Origin: Escherichia coli
GTDB lineage: Bacteria > Pseudomonadota > Gammaproteobacteria > Enterobacterales > Enterobacteriaceae
Assembly (NCBI RefSeq): GCF_003334405.1
Contig: NZ_QOWM01000006.1
Strand: one strand, 5' to 3'
DNA length: 64,000 nucleotides
Position 1 is the stretch's first letter. Each line of letters begins with the position of its first letter. Of the stretch, positions 20,638-61,154 are shown piece by piece. The notes under the pieces are model-generated. The model was not told the DNA's origin. It was given only the letters and a program-made list of their open reading frames with translations, and ran no database searches. The position numbers and the translations under genes are program-made.

Positions 20638-21333
20638 TTACTGCCCGTAATATGCCTTCGCGCCATGCTTACGCAGATAGTGTTTATCCAGCAGCGTTTG
20701 CTGCATATCCGGTAACTGCGGCGCTAACTGACGGCAGAATATCCCCATATAAGCGACCTCTTCCAGCACGATGGCGTTATGCACCGCATCTTCGGCATTT
20801 TTGCCCCATGCAAACGGGCCGTGGGAATGGACCAGAACGCCGGGCATTTGCGCTGCATCGATACCCTGTTTTTCAAAGGTTTCTACGATGACGTTACCGG
20901 TTTCCCACTCATATTCGCCGTTGATTTCTGCGTCGGTCATTTTGCGGGTGCAGGGAATGGTGCCGTAGAAATAGTCGGCGTGGGTGGTGCCGGTTGCTGG
21001 AATCGACTGACCCGCCTGCGCCCAGATGGTGGCGTGGCGCGAGTGCGTATGCACAATGCCGCCAATGGAGGGGAATGCCTGATAGAGCAGCCGGTGAGTT
21101 GGCGTGTCGGAGGAGGGCTTTTTCGTACCTTCAACCACTTCACCGGTTTCGATGCTAACCACGACCATATCGTCAGCGGTCATGACGCTGTAATCGACGC
21201 CGGAAGGTTTGATCACAAAGACGCCGCGCTCGCGATCAACGGCGCTGACGTTGCCCCATGTGAGCGTGACCAGGTTGTGTTTTGGCAGCGCCAGGTTGGC
21301 TTCTAATACCTGGCGTTTGAGATCTTCTAACAT
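20638..21333 (-). CDS. araD: L-ribulose-5-phosphate 4-epimerase
   Basis: 231-aa [48 protein letters not shown]... class II aldolase/epimerase. Confidence 0.95.
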
Positions 21334-21347
21334 GTTGACTCCTTCGT

Positions 21348-21530
21348 GCCGGATGCGCTTTGCTTATCCGGCCTACAAAATCGCAGCGTGTAGGCCTGAT
21401 AAGACGCGCCAGCGTCGCATCAGGCGTTGAATGCCGGATGCGCTTTGCTTATCCGGCCTACAAAATCGCAGCGTGTAGGCCAGATAAGACGCGTCAGCGT
21501 CGCATCAGGCGTTACATACCGGATGCGGCT
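21348..21530. repeat. BIME: two tandem ~85-bp units (each a pair of inverted REPs) plus a partial third REP
   Basis: Unit gccggatgcgctttgcttatccggcctacaaaatcgcagcgtgtaggcctgataagacgcgccagcgtcgcatcaggcgtt... repeated at 85-bp period. Confidence 0.75.
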
Positions 21531-21532
21531 AC

Positions 21533-23035
21533 TTAGCGACGAAACCCGTAATACACTTCGTTCCAGCGCAGCGCGTCTTTAAACGCTGGCAGGCGTGTGT
21601 CGTTATCAATCACCGTGATTTCAATGTCGTGCATCTCGGCGAATTGGCGCATATCGTTGAGGTTCAGTGCATGGCTGAAGACGGTATGGTGCGCGCCACC
21701 AGCGAGGATCCACGCTTCGGAAGCAGTTGGCAGATCCGGTTGCGCTTTCCACAGCGCATTCGCCACCGGCAGTTTCGGCAGGGAGTGCGGTGTTTTCACC
21801 GTGTCGATGCAGTTAACCAGTAGACGGTAACGATCGCCGAGATCAATCAAGCTGGCGACAATCGCTGGGCCGGTTTGGGTATTGAAGATCAGGCGGGCAG
21901 GATCGTCCTTACCACCAATACCGAGATGCTGAACGTCGAGGATCGGTTTCTCTTCTGCGGCGATCGACGGGCAGACTTCCAGCATATGGGAGCCGAGCAC
22001 CAGGTCATTACCTTTCTCGAAGTGATAGGTGTAGTCCTCCATAAAGGAGGTGCCGCCCTGCAGACCGGTTGACATCACCTTCATGATGCGAAGCAGGGCG
22101 GCAGTTTTCCAGTCGCCTTCGCCCGCAAAGCCGTAACCCTGCTGCATCAGACGCTGTACGGCCAGACCAGGAAGCTGTTTCAGACCGTGCAAATCTTCAA
22201 AGGTGGTGGTGAACGCGTGGAAGCCACCTTGTTCCAGGAAACGCTTCATCCCCAGCTCAATACGCGCCGCTTCCAGCACGTTCTGTCGTTTTTTGCCGTG
22301 GATTTGTGTGGCAGGCGTCATGGTGTAGCAGCTTTCGTACTCATCGACCAGCGCGTTAACATCGCCGTCGCTGATGGAGTTCACCACCTGCACCAGATCG
22401 CCAACCGCCCAGGTATTGACGGAGAAACCGAACTTGATCTGTGCGGCAACTTTATCGCCATCGGTGACCGCCACTTCACGCATGTTATCGCCAAATCGGC
22501 AGACTTTCAGATGACGGGTATCCTGTTTAGAGACCGCCTGACGCATCCAGGAGCCGATACGCTCATGGGCTTGTTTATCCTGCCAGTGACCGGTAACCAC
22601 GGCATGTTGCTGACGCATACGCGCGCCAATGAAGCCGAACTCGCGACCGCCATGTGCAGTCTGGTTCAGGTTCATAAAGTCCATATCGATACTGTCCCAC
22701 GGCAGCGCCGCGTTGAACTGGGTGTGGAATTGCAGCAACGGTTTGTTGAGCATGGTCAGGCCGTTGATCCACATTTTGGCCGGGGAGAAGGTGTGCAGCC
22801 ACACCACCAGACCAGCGCAACGATCGTCGTAATTCGCGTCGCGGCAAATAGCGGTGATTTCATCCGGCGTGGTGCCCAGCGGTTTCAACACCAGTTTGCA
22901 GGGCAGTTTCGCTTCCGTATTCAGCGCATTAACGACGTGCTCGGCATGTTGGGTGACCTGACGCAGGGTTTCCGGGCCATACAGATGCTGGCTGCCAATG
23001 ACAAACCACACTTCATAATTATCAAAAATCGTCAT
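21533..23035 (-). CDS. araA: L-arabinose isomerase
   Basis: 500-aa product [27 protein letters not shown]...; start trimmed from the 508-aa track ORF. Confidence 0.95.
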
Positions 23036-26926: not shown

Positions 26927-27625
26927 CTAACCCGTAATCCCCAATAGTGCCGAAGCACTCGCCTTACCGCTCAACAACTCATTGGTCATACCCTGCCAGG
27001 CGATGCGCCCGTCGGCGACTACTACCGAGCGCGTGGCGATCCGCGCCGCATCTTCCACGCTGTGCGACACCATCAATAGCGTCATTTTTTGCTGCTGGCA
27101 GCTCGTGCTCACCAGCGTCAACATCTCCTGACGTAACGCCGGATCGAGCGCAGAGAACGGTTCATCGAGCAATAAAATCGGCTGTTCGCGTACCAGACAA
27201 CGCGCTAACGCCACTCGCTGTCGCTGACCGCCGGAAAGCTCGCCCGGTAACCGCGCCATTAAATTATCAATCCCCATCTGGCGGGCGATAGCGTGCATTT
27301 TCCCCTGCTGTACCGCGTTCAGTTTCAATCCCGGATTTAGCCCCAGCCCGATGTTCTGTGCGACCGTCAGGTGGCTGAACAGGTTGTTCTCCTGAAACAG
27401 CATCGACACCGGACGGCGTGACGGCGGCATAGTTGTGTGATCTACGCCATCGATAGTCAGCGAACCGCTGGCTGGCGTCAGAAAACCGGCGATCAAATTC
27501 AGCAGGGTACTTTTACCCGCGCCGCTTGGCCCGAGGATCGCCACCTGCTCGCCGCGTTCCACCGTTAAGCTAAAACGCATCGGCAAATGGTGGTAAAGCC
27601 AGGTGATATCAGTCAGTTTTAACAT
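26927..27625 (-). CDS. thiQ: thiamine ABC transporter ATP-binding protein
   Basis: 232-aa product [48 protein letters not shown]... Walker A and ABC signature LSGGQRQR. Confidence 0.92.
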
Positions 27626-29219
27626 TTCGCCCCGGTAGTTTTTCAATCACGGTAAACAGCAGAAAACAGAGCAGCAGCAGAATTAACGCGGTGACCGCAC
27701 CGTCCTGGCTGCGATAGGAGCCAATTTGCTGGTAGAGATAAAACGGCAGGGTGCGGAAATCATCGTTACCGAACAACGCCACCACGCCAAAATCACCAAT
27801 CGACAGCACGCATGCAAAGGCCAGCGCCTGCGCCAGTGGACGTTTCAGGGCGCGCAGCTCCACCACTTTTAAGCGTGACCAGCCTTCAATCCCCAGCGAC
27901 TGACATAACATGCTGTAGCGGGCGGTGATATCGCGCATCGGGTTTTCCAGCACTTTCAGCGCATAAGGGATCGCCATTAACGCATTGGTGAAAATCACAA
28001 TGCCGTCAGCAGATTGTGGCAGGCCGATAGTGTTGTTGAGCAGTAAAAAGAAGCCGGTAGCCAGCACAATCCCCGGCATGGCGAGGATCAACATGCCGCT
28101 CATCTCCAGCACCTGACCCGCCAGCATTTTCTGCCGCGCCCGCAGTTCGCGACTGCTCCATAGCAGCATCATGGTCAGCACTACGCACAATACACCTGCC
28201 GCCAGCGCAATACGCAACGAGGTCCACAGCGCCTGCCACAGCACCGGTTGTGCCAGCACTTCCGGCAACTGGCGATTTACCCCATCGACGATCACCGCCA
28301 GTAACGGTGGCAGCAACAGCAGCAGCGCCAGCACAATTAACACCGTGTCGCAAATGCGGCTATGCAGACGATCGTCCGGGTCGCGCCAGCCTTGCAGCAG
28401 CGTGGTGCCGGGCGCAATGGCCTTACTCAATCGCTGACTCAACAGCACCAGCCCGAGGCAGCACACCATCTGGAGCAGCGCCAGCATTGCCGCGCGGGCA
28501 GGATCGTAGTCGTAACTCAGCGCCTGATAGATTGCCAGCTCGATAGTGGTCGCCTGCGGACCGCCCCCCAGCGATAGCACGGTGGCGAAGCTGGCGAAAC
28601 AGAGCATAAAGATAAGCGCAGCAACCGGCGGGATTTGTCGCCGTAACCACGGCCATTCGACGAAGCGGAAAAAATGCCAGCTACGCATCCCAAGCTGGGC
28701 GGCAAGTTGACGCTGTTCGCCGGGGATGTTTTCCAGTGCCTGGAGTAATAAGCGGCTCGCCATCGGCAGATTAAAAAACACATGGGCCAGCAAAATACCT
28801 TGCAGGCCGTAGGGCGAAAAGGTCCACTCCAGACCGAGCGATTGGCAGAGTGTTGCCAGCCAGCCCTGGCGACCATAGACGCTAAGAATGCCGAAAACAG
28901 CGACCAACACCGGGAGGATCAAGGTCATTGCACACAGACGCAACAGCGCCAGCCGACCCGGAAAGCGCCTGCGATAGAGCGCGCGGGCGAGGAATATCGC
29001 GGGTATGACAGAGAGCAGTGCCGAGAGAAACGCCTGCCAGAAGGAGAAGCGCACCACATGCCACAGATAGCTGTCCTGCCAGACTGCCACCCAGTCATCC
29101 TGCGGCGCGTTCCACCACAGGGCGAGAAACGCCGCCAGCGCAACCGCTACCACCAGCGTGGTGGCGCTTACACCTGGAATTAACCAGCCGGGAATTAACG
29201 GCTGACGGCGCGTTGCCAT
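27609..29219 (-). CDS. thiP: thiamine ABC transporter permease
   Basis: 536-aa two-domain permease ORF; overlaps thiQ start and thiB stop. Confidence 0.92.
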
Positions 29220-30178
29220 TCGCTAATCCATGCCTGACGTTGTGCCGCCACTTCGGCTGGCGTGAACTCCAACGTGGTTGCGGGTTTGGTCAATTTTTCA
29301 AAACCGGCAGGCAGCGTGACGTTTGCCACCGGATACATCCAGTTGCCGGTTGGGATCGCATTCTGGAAAGCCGGAGAAACCATAAACTGGAGGAATTTTT
29401 GCGCCAGCTCCGGCTGCTTGCTGGCAGCGGTGCGGGCGGCGACTTCCACTTGCAGATAGTGACCTTCGCTGAAGTTCGCGGCGGCGTAGTTATCTTTCTT
29501 CTCTTCGAGAATGTGATAAGCCGGAGAGGTGGTGTAACTCAGTACCAGATCGCTTTCACCTTTTAAAAACAGGCCGTAGGCTTCGCTCCAGCCTTTGGTG
29601 ACCGTGACCGTTTTCTTCGCCAGTTTCTGCCAGGCTTGTGGGGCGTCATCGCCATAGACTTTTTGCATCCATAGCAACAGACCCAGCCCCGGTGTACTGG
29701 TGCGCGGATCCTGATAAATCACCCGCCAGTTTTGATCGCTCTCAACCAGTTCTTTCAGGCTTTGTGGCGGGTTTTTCAGTTTGTTCTTGTCATAAACGAA
29801 GGCGAAGTAGCCATAATCAAACGGTACGAAAGTGTCATTATTCCAGCCGCCGGGAACGTTAACGGCATCCGCTGCCACACCGCTTTTGGCAAACAGTCCG
29901 GTTTTACTGGCGGCGTCTAACAGGTTGTTATCCAGCCCCAGCACCACATCGGCTTTACTGTTTTTGCCTTCCATCCGTAGACGGTTGAGAAGCGAAACGC
30001 CATCTTCCAGCGCCACCAGTTTCAGTTCGCAATTACAGTCGGCTTCAAAGGCTTTTTTAACCACCGGACCAGGCCCCCAGTCGGCGGCGAAGGAATCGTA
30101 GGTATAAACAGTCAGAACGGGTTTAGCGAAAACGGGCGCTGTGCACAGCAACAGCAGGGGCAGACATTTTTTTAACAC
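29195..30178 (-). CDS. thiB: thiamine-binding periplasmic protein ThiB (TbpA)
   Basis: 327-aa product from GTG (VLKKCLPLLLLCTAPVFA signal peptide) inside the 331-aa track ORF. Confidence 0.9.
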   Translation of the reverse strand: MLKKCLPLLLLCTAPVFAKPVLTVYTYDSFAADWGPGPVVKKAFEADCNCELKLVALEDGVSLLNRLRMEGKNSKADVVLGLDNNLLDAASKTGLFAKSGVAADAVNVPGGWNNDTFVPFDYGYFAFVYDKNKLKNPPQSLKELVESDQNWRVIYQDPRTSTPGLGLLLWMQKVYGDDAPQAWQKLAKKTVTVTKGWSEAYGLFLKGESDLVLSYTTSPAYHILEEKKDNYAAANFSEGHYLQVEVAARTAASKQPELAQKFLQFMVSPAFQNAIPTGNWMYPVANVTLPAGFEKLTKPATTLEFTPAEVAAQRQAWISEWQRAVSR

Positions 30179-30213
30179 TTTGCACCTCAAAAAAGAGTGG
30201 CAAAGGACTTGAG

Positions 30214-30306
30214 AAGGAGCCTCAAATCCCTTCGCCGGCGTTATCCGGATCAGGTTCGACGGGTATTTTCTCAGCGCACGCGTACGCGTGGCACCCCGTT
30301 GAGAAC
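30214..30306 (-). promoter_or_regulatory. sroA: TPP (THI-box) riboswitch in thiBPQ leader (sroA)
   Basis: Minus strand contains CUGAGA...ACCCGUCGAACCUGAUCCGGAUAACGCCGGCGAAGGGA, the conserved TPP aptamer core; boundaries approximate. Confidence 0.8.
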
Positions 30307-30341
30307 GGCGTTAGTGTAGTGATTTTGTTATCAACCAGCAA

Positions 30342-31997
30342 TCATGGATCCGGTGGCGCAAACCACGCTGATTTAAAATCGAACCAGCCGAGGGTATTCA
30401 TGCGCAGGCCGCGCATACTGCGTTGCCCCTGAATGATCAGCCAGTGGTGCAATAATGGCACCATCGCTTTGCTGGCGACCAGTTGCTGGCACCAGTTCGC
30501 CAGATTCATCTCGCCATTGCGCCAGCGAGCAGCGTCGGCTTGCCAGTCAATGGGAATGCAATGTTGTAGCAGTGGCACTTCGCATAAATGTGCGAAAACA
30601 GAGAAGTCCAGCGGCAGGGTAAAGTTGGCGCTGTTTAGCCAGATATCACTTTCGATCTCTCCTGTATGCCACTGATCGTAGTCGATCTCTTTGATTTTCA
30701 GCGTGACCTGGTGACTTGCCAGAATCTGCTGCATGATCCCGGCAATCACCCGATGCTCACTGTGATCCTGATAAAAGGTTAGGGTGAGGCTTTCCAGGCC
30801 AGCCGGTTTTTCGCTCTTTATGGTGCGGGCATGGTGCCAACGGGGGAGCAGTCCATAAGCCGGGAACCACAGTTGCTGGTACTGTTCCTCAGCGAAATAG
30901 ACCAGATTAGTTGGAGAAAGCACATAGCTTACCCAGTCCCTGACTTGCTGATTCGCCCCGCGATGGGTGCGGCTGTCGAACAGTAAATAGTAGCAACCTT
31001 CCTCCAGGCGGCTTTCAATCTCTTTTTCCTCGCCCTGTGGACCTTTTAGCATCAGCCCTCCGGCTGGCTCGTCGGCAATTTCCGGCAGAACCCAGACGTT
31101 AACTTCGTCGATTAATGCCCGGTAACCGAAGAAGTCATCGAATGCCTGAATTTTCAGTTGATTGGTGCTGTTGCGAATCACCGCATACGGACCGGTGCCG
31201 ATGGGATGGCTGGCAAAGTTACTGAGGGTTTCCCATTCGCGCGGCAGGATCATCGCCGGAACTTGCCCCAGCAGTAACGGTAACCAGCGGTCCGGTTGCG
31301 TGAGATGGATATCCAGCGTCCAGGGCGTCGGCGACACAATGTCAGCAATATGCGAATAGAGCGGCAGCGTATTGATTCGTTTTAAAGAGGCGATCACATC
31401 GTCCATTTCCAGTTCACGACCATGGTGAAAATGGACTCCTGGACGCAAAAAGAAACGCCAGTGAAGCGGTGAAATTTGCTGCCAGTGGTGGGCGATGTCT
31501 GCTTCCAGTTCCCCATTTTCCTCATTTATGCGCGTTAGCGAACTGAAGATTTGCCGGGCGATATGGGTTTCGGAACGGCGCAATGCGCTGCCAGGTAGCA
31601 GATTACGCAACGGACGATAGTAGAGCACGCGCAGGATGTGCCGCCCCTGGCGGAAGCTGCGGCCCAGATGAGAAACCAGCATTTGCCGCACAGTCGCTTT
31701 GTCGCCAACCAACTGCACCAGTTGATCGATACGATCCTGCTCTAGCAGGTCTTCCGCCCGCTGTTGCTGAAGCGCCAGCCCGGTATAGAGGAATGTCAGA
31801 CGCGAGCGTTTACCGCGCCCGACTTCCGCTTCCCACGTCAGCCAGCCGCGATCCTGCATGGTGTTGAGCAGGGTGCGCATATGACGACGCGAGCAGCTCA
31901 ATAACGCTGCCAGTTCGTTGAGCGTTGTGTCCTGCGATTTACCCTCGCAGCATTGCCACAGGCGGATGAACTGTTGTTGCAGACGAGCAGATGGCAT
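30342..31997 (-). CDS. sgrR: sugar-phosphate stress transcriptional regulator SgrR
   Basis: 551-aa product [45 protein letters not shown]... with N-terminal HTH and solute-binding-like domain. Confidence 0.92.
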
Positions 31998-32052: not shown

Positions 32053-32291
32053 ATAATTCCTAACGATGAAGCAAGGGGGTGCCCCATGCGTCAGTTTTAT
32101 CAGCACTATTTTACCGCGACAGCGAAGTTGTGCTGGTTGCGTTGGTTAAGCGTCCCACAACGATTAACCATGCTTGAAGGACTGATGCAGTGGGATGACC
32201 GCAATTCTGAAAGTTGACTTGCCTGCATCATGTGTGACTGAGTATTGGTGTAAAATCACCCGCCAGCAGATTATACCTGCTGGTTTTTTTT
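32053..32291 (+). ncRNA. sgrS: SgrS dual-function small RNA (glucose-phosphate stress)
   Basis: Divergent from sgrR; contains the sgrT ORF; 3' end is hairpin ccagcagattatacctgctgg plus U8; 5' end approximate. Confidence 0.8.
32086..32217 (+). CDS. sgrT: SgrT 43-aa peptide (inhibitor of PtsG transport activity)
   Basis: MRQFYQHYFTATAKLCWLRWLSVPQRLTMLEGLMQWDDRNSES encoded within the sgrS transcript. Confidence 0.85.
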   Translation: MRQFYQHYFTATAKLCWLRWLSVPQRLTMLEGLMQWDDRNSES

Positions 32292-38269: not shown

Positions 38270-38302
38270 TAAAAAAACCCGCGCAATGGCGCGGGTTTTT
38301 TG
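38270..38302 (-). terminator. leu operon attenuator (intrinsic terminator between leuL and leuA)
   Basis: Minus strand cccgcgccattgcgcggg hairpin followed by TTTTTTT. Confidence 0.7.
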
Positions 38303-38319
38303 TTTGACTGCGTGCTGGC

Positions 38320-38406
38320 TTAATGCTGGATGCCGCTCACTCGTCTACCGCGCAAAGAAGATGCGTTTAGTAGTAGTAGACCGATAAAGCGAACGATGTG
38401 AGTCAT
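38320..38406 (-). CDS. leuL: leu operon leader peptide
   Basis: 28-aa [28 protein letters not shown] with four consecutive Leu codons upstream of the attenuator. Confidence 0.9.
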
Positions 38407-38589
38407 TAAATCAGCTCCAGATGAATGCGATATGCTTTTAGAGTTACTGGATACAAAAACGGATGTCAACCCTGACGCAATAAAAACGTCCCGCCAGCGT
38501 GAGTTCTGCATCCGTAAAATTAGCTAATTGTGCTGCGGTGGTTAAAGTAAGCGATATTAATTTCTGCTTAACTACCGACGCTTTTCATC

Positions 38590-58683: not shown

Positions 58684-59942
58684 TCAAGGCGACGGACAGA
58701 AAACTGGTAGTAGGACTGGAGATTGGTACCGCGAAGGTTGCCGCTTTAGTAGGGGAAGTTCTGCCCGACGGTATGGTCAATATCATTGGCGTGGGCAGCT
58801 GCCCGTCGCGTGGTATGGATAAAGGCGGGGTGAACGACCTCGAATCCGTGGTCAAGTGCGTACAACGCGCCATTGACCAGGCAGAATTGATGGCAGATTG
58901 TCAGATCTCTTCGGTATATCTGGCGCTTTCTGGTAAGCACATCAGCTGCCAGAATGAAATTGGTATGGTGCCTATTTCTGAAGAAGAAGTGACGCAAGAA
59001 GATGTGGAAAACGTCGTCCATACCGCGAAATCGGTGCGTGTGCGCGATGAGCATCGTGTGCTGCATGTGATCCCGCAAGAGTATGCGATTGACTATCAGG
59101 AAGGGATCAAGAATCCGGTAGGACTTTCGGGCGTGCGGATGCAGGCAAAAGTGCACCTGATCACATGTCACAACGATATGGCGAAAAACATCGTCAAAGC
59201 GGTTGAACGTTGTGGGCTGAAAGTTGACCAACTGATATTTGCCGGACTGGCATCAAGTTATTCGGTATTGACGGAAGATGAACGTGAACTGGGTGTCTGC
59301 GTCGTCGATATCGGTGGTGGTACAATGGATATCGCCGTTTATACCGGTGGGGCATTGCGCCACACTAAGGTAATTCCTTATGCTGGCAATGTCGTGACCA
59401 GTGATATCGCTTACGCCTTTGGCACGCCGCCAAGCGACGCCGAAGCGATTAAAGTTCGCCACGGTTGTGCGCTGGGTTCCATCGTTGGAAAAGATGAGAG
59501 CGTGGAAGTGCCGAGCGTAGGTGGTCGTCCGCCACGGAGTCTGCAACGTCAGACACTGGCAGAGGTGATCGAGCCGCGCTATACCGAGCTGCTCAACCTG
59601 GTCAACGAAGAGATATTGCAGTTGCAGGAAAAGCTTCGCCAACAAGGGGTTAAACATCACCTGGCGGCAGGCATTGTATTAACCGGTGGCGCAGCGCAGA
59701 TCGAAGGTCTTGCAGCCTGTGCTCAGCGCGTGTTTCATACGCAAGTGCGTATCGGCGCGCCGCTGAACATTACCGGTTTAACGGATTATGCTCAGGAGCC
59801 GTATTATTCGACGGCGGTGGGATTGCTTCACTATGGGAAAGAGTCACATCTTAACGGTGAAGCTGAAGTAGAAAAACGTGTTACAGCATCAGTTGGCTCG
59901 TGGATCAAGCGACTCAATAGTTGGCTGCGAAAAGAGTTTTAA
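58680..59942 (+). CDS. ftsA: cell division protein FtsA (actin-like ATPase)
   Basis: 420-aa [34 protein letters not shown]... Confidence 0.95.
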
Positions 59943-60002
59943 TTTTTATGAGGCCGACGATGATTACGGCCTCAGGCGACAGGCACAAATCGGAGAGAAA
60001 CT

Positions 60003-61154
60003 ATGTTTGAACCAATGGAACTTACCAATGACGCGGTGATTAAAGTCATCGGCGTCGGCGGCGGCGGCGGTAATGCTGTTGAACACATGGTGCGCGAGCG
60101 CATTGAAGGTGTTGAATTCTTCGCGGTAAATACCGATGCACAAGCGCTGCGTAAAACAGCGGTTGGACAGACGATTCAAATCGGTAGCGGTATCACCAAA
60201 GGACTGGGCGCTGGCGCTAATCCAGAAGTTGGCCGCAATGCGGCTGATGAGGATCGCGATGCATTGCGTGCGGCGCTGGAAGGTGCAGACATGGTCTTTA
60301 TTGCTGCGGGTATGGGTGGTGGTACCGGTACAGGTGCAGCACCAGTCGTCGCTGAAGTGGCAAAAGATTTGGGTATCCTGACCGTTGCTGTCGTCACTAA
60401 GCCTTTCAACTTTGAAGGCAAGAAGCGTATGGCATTCGCGGAGCAGGGGATCACTGAACTGTCCAAGCATGTGGACTCTCTGATCACTATCCCGAACGAC
60501 AAACTGCTGAAAGTTCTGGGCCGCGGTATCTCCCTGCTGGATGCGTTTGGCGCAGCGAACGATGTACTGAAAGGCGCTGTGCAAGGTATCGCTGAACTGA
60601 TTACTCGTCCGGGTTTGATGAACGTGGACTTTGCAGACGTACGCACCGTAATGTCTGAGATGGGCTACGCAATGATGGGTTCTGGCGTGGCGAGCGGTGA
60701 AGACCGTGCGGAAGAAGCTGCTGAAATGGCTATCTCTTCTCCGCTGCTGGAAGATATCGACCTGTCTGGCGCGCGCGGCGTGCTGGTTAACATCACGGCG
60801 GGCTTCGACCTGCGTCTGGATGAGTTCGAAACGGTAGGTAACACCATCCGTGCATTTGCTTCCGACAACGCGACTGTGGTTATCGGTACTTCTCTTGACC
60901 CGGATATGAATGACGAGCTGCGCGTAACCGTTGTTGCGACAGGTATCGGCATGGACAAACGTCCTGAAATCACTCTGGTGACCAATAAGCAGGTTCAGCA
61001 GCCAGTGATGGATCGCTACCAGCAGCATGGGATGGCTCCGCTGACCCAGGAGCAGAAGCCGGTTGCTAAAGTCGTGAATGACAATGCGCCGCAAACTGCG
61101 AAAGAGCCGGATTATCTGGATATCCCAGCATTCCTGCGTAAGCAAGCTGATTAA
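60003..61154 (+). CDS. ftsZ: cell division GTPase FtsZ
   Basis: 383-aa ORF with tubulin signature GGGTGTG. Confidence 0.97.

Follow-up and report, generated by a model that had tools for sequence, protein, structure and literature searches.

The thiB (tbpA) TPP riboswitch of Escherichia coli, its switching leader and the SroA fragment

Introduction

What kind of structured RNA lies in the leader of the thiamine transport genes of Escherichia coli, how far does the functional element extend, and at which level does it act on the genes downstream? These questions are raised by a sequence-only reading of a 64,000-nucleotide stretch of E. coli DNA (RefSeq assembly GCF_003334405.1, contig NZ_QOWM01000006.1; the whole stretch is called the window here), which had placed a TPP riboswitch, or THI box, on the minus strand at 30214–30306, upstream of thiBPQ. 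Positions given below are window coordinates, and nucleotides of the leader are numbered from window 30306 (nt 1) along the minus strand.

Identity and extent of the element

The 64-kb window was compared with all 4227 Rfam families using cmscan, and the TPP family (RF00059) matched the minus strand at 30308–30209 with 65.9 bits, which passes the curated gathering score of 54.3 bits. The match covers model positions 1–105 of 105, and across this alignment the optional inner stem after CUGAGA is the sole model element that is absent. The E-value is 1e-10 when the full 64 kb is searched and 8e-13 when the search is confined to the surrounding 501 bases, and the match thus lies far beyond chance. 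Both core motifs on which the proposal had been built are in place on the minus strand, namely CUGAGA at 30274–30269 and the 38-nt motif ACCCGUCGAACCUGAUCCGGAUAACGCCGGCGAAGGGA at 30264–30227.

Over 1101 bases that surround the element, the sequence shows 100% identity to K-12, and likewise to many other E. coli genomes. On this identical DNA, the PGAP/RefSeq annotation of a K-12 genome places a "TPP riboswitch" at window 30308–30209, between sgrR and thiB-thiP-thiQ. The proposed TPP aptamer (THI element; 30209–30308, minus strand) in the thiB leader is therefore borne out twice, by the covariance model and by an annotated, K-12-identical locus that share the same coordinates. The interval 30214–30306 corresponds exactly to the sroA ncRNA feature of NC_000913.3 (b4762; 75516–75608, offset 45302), and the description of the interval as the known element sroA was thus correct. 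This feature denotes SroA, a 93-nt RNA of E. coli K-12 that comprises the aptamer plus 7 nt, the ends of which were taken here from the GenBank feature and later papers.

As a delimitation of the riboswitch, the interval holds only in part: it captures the aptamer and the SroA fragment, but the regulatory unit reaches approximately 45 nt further in the 3′ direction, to the start codon. Indeed, the invading strand, the hairpin that sequesters the Shine-Dalgarno (SD) sequence and the start codon itself all lie outside 30214–30306. The functional unit runs from approximately 30341 (promoter) or 30306 (transcription start) to approximately 30167, and not just from 30306 to 30214. The element is almost certainly the E. 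coli thiB (tbpA) TPP riboswitch, that is, a cis-acting element of the 128-nt thiBPQ leader that switches translation OFF in response to TPP and is under kinetic control; its aptamer part also accumulates as the 93-nt SroA. Both the thiB riboswitch and sroA are already known, the former being annotated by RefSeq and the latter in the K-12 reference record.

Genes, transcription start and candidate promoter

The aptamer sits in the sense-strand 5′ leader of the thiamine transport genes, and thiB, thiP and thiQ follow directly on its 3′ side on the same strand, as had been proposed. According to the RefSeq annotation of the identical DNA, thiB (tbpA; 29195–30178, minus strand), which encodes the periplasmic thiamine/TPP-binding protein, begins with the GTG codon at 30178–30176 that had been read from the letters, and is followed by the genes for the ABC transporter permease ThiP (27609–29219, minus strand) and the ABC transporter ATPase ThiQ (26927–27625, minus strand). 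The minus strand at the locus reads GUUCUCAACGGGGUGCCACGCGUACGCGUGCGCUGAGAAAAUACCCGUCGAACCUGAUCCGGAUAACGCCGGCGAAGGGAUUUGAGGCUCCUUCUCAAGUCCUUUGCCACUCUUUUUUGAGGUGCAAAGUGUUAAAAAAAUG.

Transcription starts at the G of GUU at 30306 (minus strand), which is the 5′ end of the sroA feature. The published tbpA transcript begins with GUU, and the published constructs make use of U14 and G37, all of which fit the window (Chauvier 2021). In Salmonella, 5′ RACE placed a start shared by sroA and tbpA 129 nt upstream of the GTG codon, compared with 128 nt from transcription start to GTG in the window.

A simple scan of 30000–30700 found no consensus sigma-70 promoter, so the promoter assignment rests on the mapped 5′ end together with a conserved TACAAT-like box. 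The mapped 5′ end lies 7 nt downstream of the candidate –10 hexamer, TACACT (30313–30318, minus strand), which stands at a fixed distance upstream of helix P1 in 15 of 15 enterobacterial leaders, mostly as TACAAT and with T, A, A and T invariant. The candidate –35 hexamer, TTGCTG (30336–30341, minus strand), lies 17 nt upstream of the –10 box and carries three of the six consensus bases; its leading T residues are conserved in the orthologs (T17 invariant, T18 in at least 90%). TTGCTG and TACACT are accordingly put forward as the putative thiB promoter hexamers. The sgrR stop codon TGA (30344–30342) directly adjoins the candidate –35 hexamer, and a stop codon followed by a conserved T-rich hexamer occupies the same place in most enterobacterial leaders. 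No terminator could be detected between sgrR and the riboswitch, and read-through from sgrR into the thiB leader is thus possible.

Anatomy of the aptamer

On the minus strand, the Rfam alignment assigns five standard pairs to P1 (30303–30299 with 30225–30221), which joins the 5′ strand CUCAA (nt 4–8; 30299–30303), invariant in the 15 orthologs, to the 3′ strand UUGAG (nt 82–86; 30221–30225). The latter is contested by the P1 5′ strand and by the invader described below (see also Berman 2023). P1 closes two arms, both defined by the Rfam alignment and by pairing. The P2–P3 arm (30260–30298) is made up of P2 (30298–30293 with 30266–30260) and P3 (30292–30288 with 30279–30274) and contains the CUGAGA pyrimidine-sensor junction; the P4–P5 arm (30229–30254), on the pyrophosphate-sensor side, is made up of P4 (30254–30252 with 30231–30229) and P5 (30248–30245 with 30238–30235) and is invariant in the orthologs. 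The three-way junction expected of the family is thus present, and 22 of the 22 assigned pairs are standard; where P4 ends, G56 stands opposite A75, a G·A apposition that the RF00059 model tolerates in its scoring.

The ligand-contact motifs are likewise present, with CUGAGA at 30274–30269 and CCUGAU...GCG.AGGGA within 30254–30227, and they are identical to the thiM core. Their role in contacting the ligand is assigned from published thiM structures (cited in Berman 2023, Chauvier 2021). When the 93-nt SroA span was folded alone, its z-score against shuffles was –0.26 and the predicted fold differed from the aptamer fold, indicating that thermodynamic stability by itself does not flag the aptamer.

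Expression platform and strand competition

Two short sequences each occur twice in the leader. CUCAA is found at 30303–30299, as the P1 5′ strand, and again at 30213–30209, as the invader; UUGAG is found at 30225–30221, as the P1 3′ strand, and again at 30190–30186. Two hairpins downstream of, or overlapping, the aptamer were predicted on the minus strand. The first is an extended anti-sequester (anti-P1) hairpin spanning 30202–30232, in which nt 75–87 pair with nt 93–105 (30232–30220 with 30214–30202) through 13 pairs (–14.3 kcal/mol) and which holds the invader CUCAA. The second is an SD-sequestering hairpin at 30178–30205 (–10.6 kcal/mol), with a CUUUGC:GCAAAG base, an inner CUC:GAG stem and a U6 loop; it takes in the Shine-Dalgarno sequence GAGG (30185–30188), which lies 6 nt upstream of the GTG codon, together with the G of that codon. 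An alternative sequestering helix between the linker CUCAA and the UUGAG at 30190–30186 was rejected: with the aptamer enforced, it reached –30.2 kcal/mol, compared with –37.6 kcal/mol for the CUUUGC:GCAAAG hairpin, and it also differs from the stem backed by mutagenesis (Berman 2023).

Folding and sequence together show that these helices are mutually exclusive, P1 with anti-P1 and anti-P1 with the SD-sequestering stem. The anti-sequester uses the 3′ strands of both P1 and P4 as well as a CCUUU segment, which takes in the first four of the six bases that form the 5′ side of the sequester hairpin base. When the full leader was folded without constraints, the anti-sequester hairpin appeared in place of P1 (–48.4 kcal/mol); for this leader the z-score was –2.4, and 0 of 200 shuffles folded as well. 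For the full leader and for the intermediates of 100–117 nt, the minimum-energy fold is thus the anti-sequester stem, in its extended form at 105 and 117 nt.

Enforcing the aptamer yields an ensemble 11.5 kcal/mol less stable than the free ensemble in a nearest-neighbor model that omits tertiary contacts. A gap of this size fits a switch that decides during transcription, as in the kinetic co-transcriptional control reported for this leader (Chauvier 2021), and it suggests that, once the leader has folded completely, physiological TPP would be unable to restore the aptamer state. In the same nearest-neighbor folding, the probability that GAGG is unpaired was 0.20–0.24 in all states, and the small SD hairpin was predicted in every state. 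SD accessibility being alike throughout, the computation supports strand competition and does not by itself support the translational output.

Published work and proposed mechanism

Experiments on the identical sequence supply that output. A leader-sfGFP fusion was repressed in a TPP-dependent manner, and repression was lost in aptamer point mutants; a mutation weakening the SD hairpin likewise abolished the TPP response (Berman 2023). Linker nt 95–99, which are complementary to the P1 3′ strand, proved essential, the anti-sequester stem was supported by SHAPE-Seq, and mutations favoring P1 biased the switch OFF while those favoring the anti-sequester biased it ON (Berman 2023). In kinetic terms, a Kswitch of 227 nM was determined, and anti-P1 formation was found to set the limits of the TPP-sensing window, the pauses being at 104, 117 and 136 (Chauvier 2021), which correspond to window positions 30203, 30190 and 30171. 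A pause near the start codon had also been described (Chauvier 2017).

Combined with the predicted helices, this literature, from which the TPP dependence, the translational control and the kinetic control are taken (Berman 2023; Chauvier 2017, 2021), leads us to propose the following course of events. Transcription begins at G30306, and the first approximately 88 nt fold into the three-way-junction TPP aptamer (P1–P5). If TPP were bound while the polymerase was still in the leader, near the pauses at nt 104 and 117, P1 (CUCAA:UUGAG) would be locked, the downstream CUCAA (30213–30209) would stay unpaired, and the hairpin at 30205–30178 would form, burying the SD sequence GAGG and the first base of GTG and leaving ThiB untranslated. 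If TPP did not arrive in time, the downstream CUCAA would invade P1, pair with its 3′ strand and zip into the 13-bp anti-sequester, which would also claim the 3′ side of P4 along with four bases from the six-base 5′ strand of the sequester base. Since the anti-sequester would consume these 5′-strand bases, the ribosome binding site would open and thiBPQ would be expressed.

Conservation among enterobacteria and within E. coli

A DNA-pattern scan with the aptamer core, applied to 100,044 species genomes, returned 120 loci. A ThiB homolog is encoded immediately downstream at 21 of these 120 loci (13 in Enterobacterales, 7 in spirochaetes and 1 in Bacillota). Leaders were then aligned as a set of 15 orthologs, comprising the window and 14 enterobacterial leaders (those of the 13 Enterobacterales loci and that of E. 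albertii).

Across the 15 leaders, no change is seen in either P1 strand, in the invader CUCAA, in CCUUUGCC or GCAAAGUG, in the GTG start or in the CUUUGC/GCAAAG base of the sequestering hairpin. More generally, P1, P2, P4, P5 and the hairpin base never vary among the 15 orthologs, which for the four aptamer helices is due in part to the search pattern, since it fixed the core. Pair counting across the 15-ortholog alignment detected no covariation signal, with shuffles reaching the observed values; the paired columns being invariant, the alignment speaks for conservation and not for covariation. P3 shows a different pattern, in that its hairpin is formed in 15 of 15 leaders from at least six unrelated stem sequences, indicating compensatory change. 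Both hairpins of the expression platform are also kept in every ortholog: in 15 of 15 leaders the anti-sequester forms over its full length, with a loop that ranges from 5 to approximately 45 nt, and at least three of the four SD bases are paired in all 15, even where AGGAG replaces GAGG and the anti-SD sequence changes alongside.

Beyond the enterobacteria, TPP aptamers with the core spacing of thiB were observed directly upstream of genes for ThiB homologs (35–46% identity) in seven spirochaetes and one member of the Bacillota.

Among 5426 complete E. coli genomes, 5399 carry the 156-nt leader exactly once, with an identity of at least 95% in every one of these except 2; a longer query of 1.1 kb, which includes parts of sgrR and thiB, placed 2907 genomes in the 90–95% band. 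Four variant leaders were compared, from three E. coli strains and E. albertii. Their differences lie in the P3 stem or loop and in the U-rich hairpin loop, and no change was found in P1, P2, P4, P5 or any of the switching strands.

E. coli strain H2 (NZ_CP028733.1) carries a 10-nt deletion in the perfectly palindromic P3 sequence CACGCGUACGCGUG, aligned to window 30290–30280, which leaves its thiB aptamer with a very short P3; PGAP still calls a TPP riboswitch there. A natural 4-bp P3 is found in Superficieibacter, and the H2 deletion may thus be tolerated. The 1101-base sgrR-thiB stretch matches E. coli strain 5444 (NZ_CP103515.1) in two parts that together extend over 1878 bases, with an IS1A transposase annotated beneath the match; this strain has an IS1 insertion in or beside the sgrR-thiB region.

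Alternative readings

Could the switch act mainly on transcription, with TPP exposing a Rho loading site or uncoupling translation so that transcription stops inside thiB and SD sequestration is secondary? In chromatin immunoprecipitation (ChIP) of RNA polymerase in the Rho R66S mutant, thiB received a termination score of 3.0 (Bastet 2017), and thiC and thiM are both under dual control (Berman 2023; Bastet 2017). The first approximately 100 nt of the thiB open reading frame (30176–30073) are mildly richer in C than in G (C/G 1.4–1.5), a bias too weak to indicate more than a putative loading site. Bicyclomycin had no effect on TPP repression of the leader-sfGFP fusion, repression being the same under the drug and lost when the SD hairpin was weakened (Berman 2023). 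The insensitive reporter carried only 12 nt of thiB (Berman 2023) and would therefore lack a Rho site located in the gene, such that the ChIP and bicyclomycin results can be reconciled. Termination by Rho after a translational block is, moreover, the usual polarity effect and needs no dedicated mechanism; Rho termination inside thiB is probably a consequence of the block. We regard control mainly through Rho as unlikely, though worth serious consideration, and Rho control as possible only as a secondary layer. The ChIP signal in thiB nevertheless means that translation may not be the sole regulated level in the native context.

A second alternative concerns SroA itself, which might be a trans-acting small RNA with its own targets, besides or instead of being part of a cis switch. 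A discrete species of approximately 93–100 nt is annotated and was detected on Salmonella northern blots, and predictions of small-RNA regulation have been noted (Chauvier 2021). In Salmonella, the level of SroA rises approximately 3-fold with tigecycline while tbpA mRNA hardly changes, an induction that is not seen in E. coli; deletion of sroA lowers survival, a plasmid complements the deletion, and a fitness defect in mice has been reported, but, as the authors themselves point out, tbpA loses its cis regulator through the same deletion. SroA has no validated target, the available TargetRNA predictions having p-values of approximately 0.006, and nearly all of the fragment is folded aptamer, so that few of its bases are free to pair. 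A regulator of this kind is hence improbable in our estimation. The SroA 3′ end (30214, nt 93) falls within the anti-sequester loop, with the invader CUCAA following at once, and there is no terminator at that point. It is conceivable, at similarly long odds, that the stable SroA, as the TPP-bound aptamer left after cleavage or trimming of the linker at nt 93, acts in trans or as a TPP-buffering or decoy RNA, apart from the cis control of thiBPQ; the tigecycline and mouse-fitness phenotypes in Salmonella offer a hint in this direction.

The existence of this short species, and a hairpin with a U6 run at 30205–30178, might also recall an attenuator in which, with TPP bound, transcription would terminate at the hairpin that precedes the start codon. 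The U6 run, however, is the loop of that hairpin and not a tail, its stem being followed by GUGUUAAAAAAA; a scan of the minus strand over 30000–30700 found no terminator-like site; and the SroA 3′ end lies upstream of the hairpin. In vitro transcription yielded only the full-length product at every TPP concentration, by which an intrinsic terminator had already been refuted (Berman 2023), and we consider this reading very improbable indeed. Finally, a chance resemblance to a THI box in a non-functional spacer is excluded for all practical purposes by the E-value of 1e-10 over the window, by the maintenance of the element across Enterobacterales with compensatory changes in P3, and by the experimental characterization of the locus.

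Comparison with known systems

The K-12 thiB/tbpA riboswitch (sroA, b4762) is the same element as that described here, and nothing differs within the leader. The translational OFF switch of thiB has its nearest paralog in E. coli thiM, which belongs to the same Rfam family (71.2 bits). Both aptamers have a three-way junction that lacks the optional inner stem, both contain the CUGAGA, ACCCG, CCUGAUC and GCG.AGGGA cores, and both rely on SD sequestration with an anti-P1 alternative (Berman 2023; Chauvier 2017, 2021). In contrast, the P1 and P3 sequences of the two are unrelated, their expression platforms cannot be aligned, and the P5 pair C60:G71 of thiB is U:A in thiM; thiM furthermore controls a salvage kinase, has an AUG start and is reported to involve Rho (Berman 2023; Bastet 2017).

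The thiC riboswitch responds to the same ligand in the same genome and, like that of thiB, has an anti-P1 stem and a regulatory pause close to its start codon (Chauvier 2017), whereas its control is dual, translational and through Rho, with a Rho score of 12 compared with 3.0 for thiB (Bastet 2017). Set against thiC, thiB is marked by a shortening of the pause half-life near position 117 by TPP (Chauvier 2017). A more distant parallel is found in transcriptional OFF switches of the type of the Bacillus subtilis yxjA purine riboswitch, in which P1 and the expression platform likewise both face competition from an intermediate helix, in keeping with strand displacement (Berman 2023). Switches of the yxjA type end in an intrinsic terminator, whereas the thiB platform is an SD-sequestering hairpin without a terminator.

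Other observations in the window

Comparison with NC_000913.3 indicates that the window derives from a K-12-like strain and is not the reference record. The sole substitution in the 6.5 kb compared is a T, where K-12 has C, at window 31743 inside sgrR. The araD-araA spacer (21083–21798) contains tandem repeat units of approximately 85 bp that match naRNA4, with one unit more than in NC_000913.3, and Rfam reports naRNA4 at 21393–21458 (minus strand) with 60.2 bits against a threshold of 59.5. Owing to the extra unit, the K-12 offset of 45302, which is valid for the thiB region, becomes 45217 upstream of this spacer.

Two further known elements gave full-length Rfam matches at their expected K-12 positions, SgrS at 32065–32291 (plus strand; 228.8 bits) and the leucine operon leader at 38271–38420 (minus strand; 145.8 bits). 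A match to RF02797, PssrA ("plasmid-encoded Shigella sRNA A"), at 59922–60011 (plus strand; 105.5 bits) is chromosomal, covering the 3′ end of ftsA, the ftsA-ftsZ spacer and the first codons of ftsZ, and the other strand carries the antisense RNA StfZ in the annotation of NC_000913.3; given this position, the family name does not fit the locus.

Significance

The mechanism at this locus has already been worked out through mutagenesis, SHAPE-Seq and single-molecule FRET, and the element has little value as a discovery. Its value here is that of a positive control, in which a reading of raw sequence recovered a real structured RNA at its exact annotated coordinates. The comparison of leaders makes a small addition to what is known, namely that conservation from Escherichia to Yersinia and Photorhabdus extends beyond the aptamer to the whole three-strand switching architecture, even with linker insertions of up to approximately 45 nt and a change in the SD sequence.
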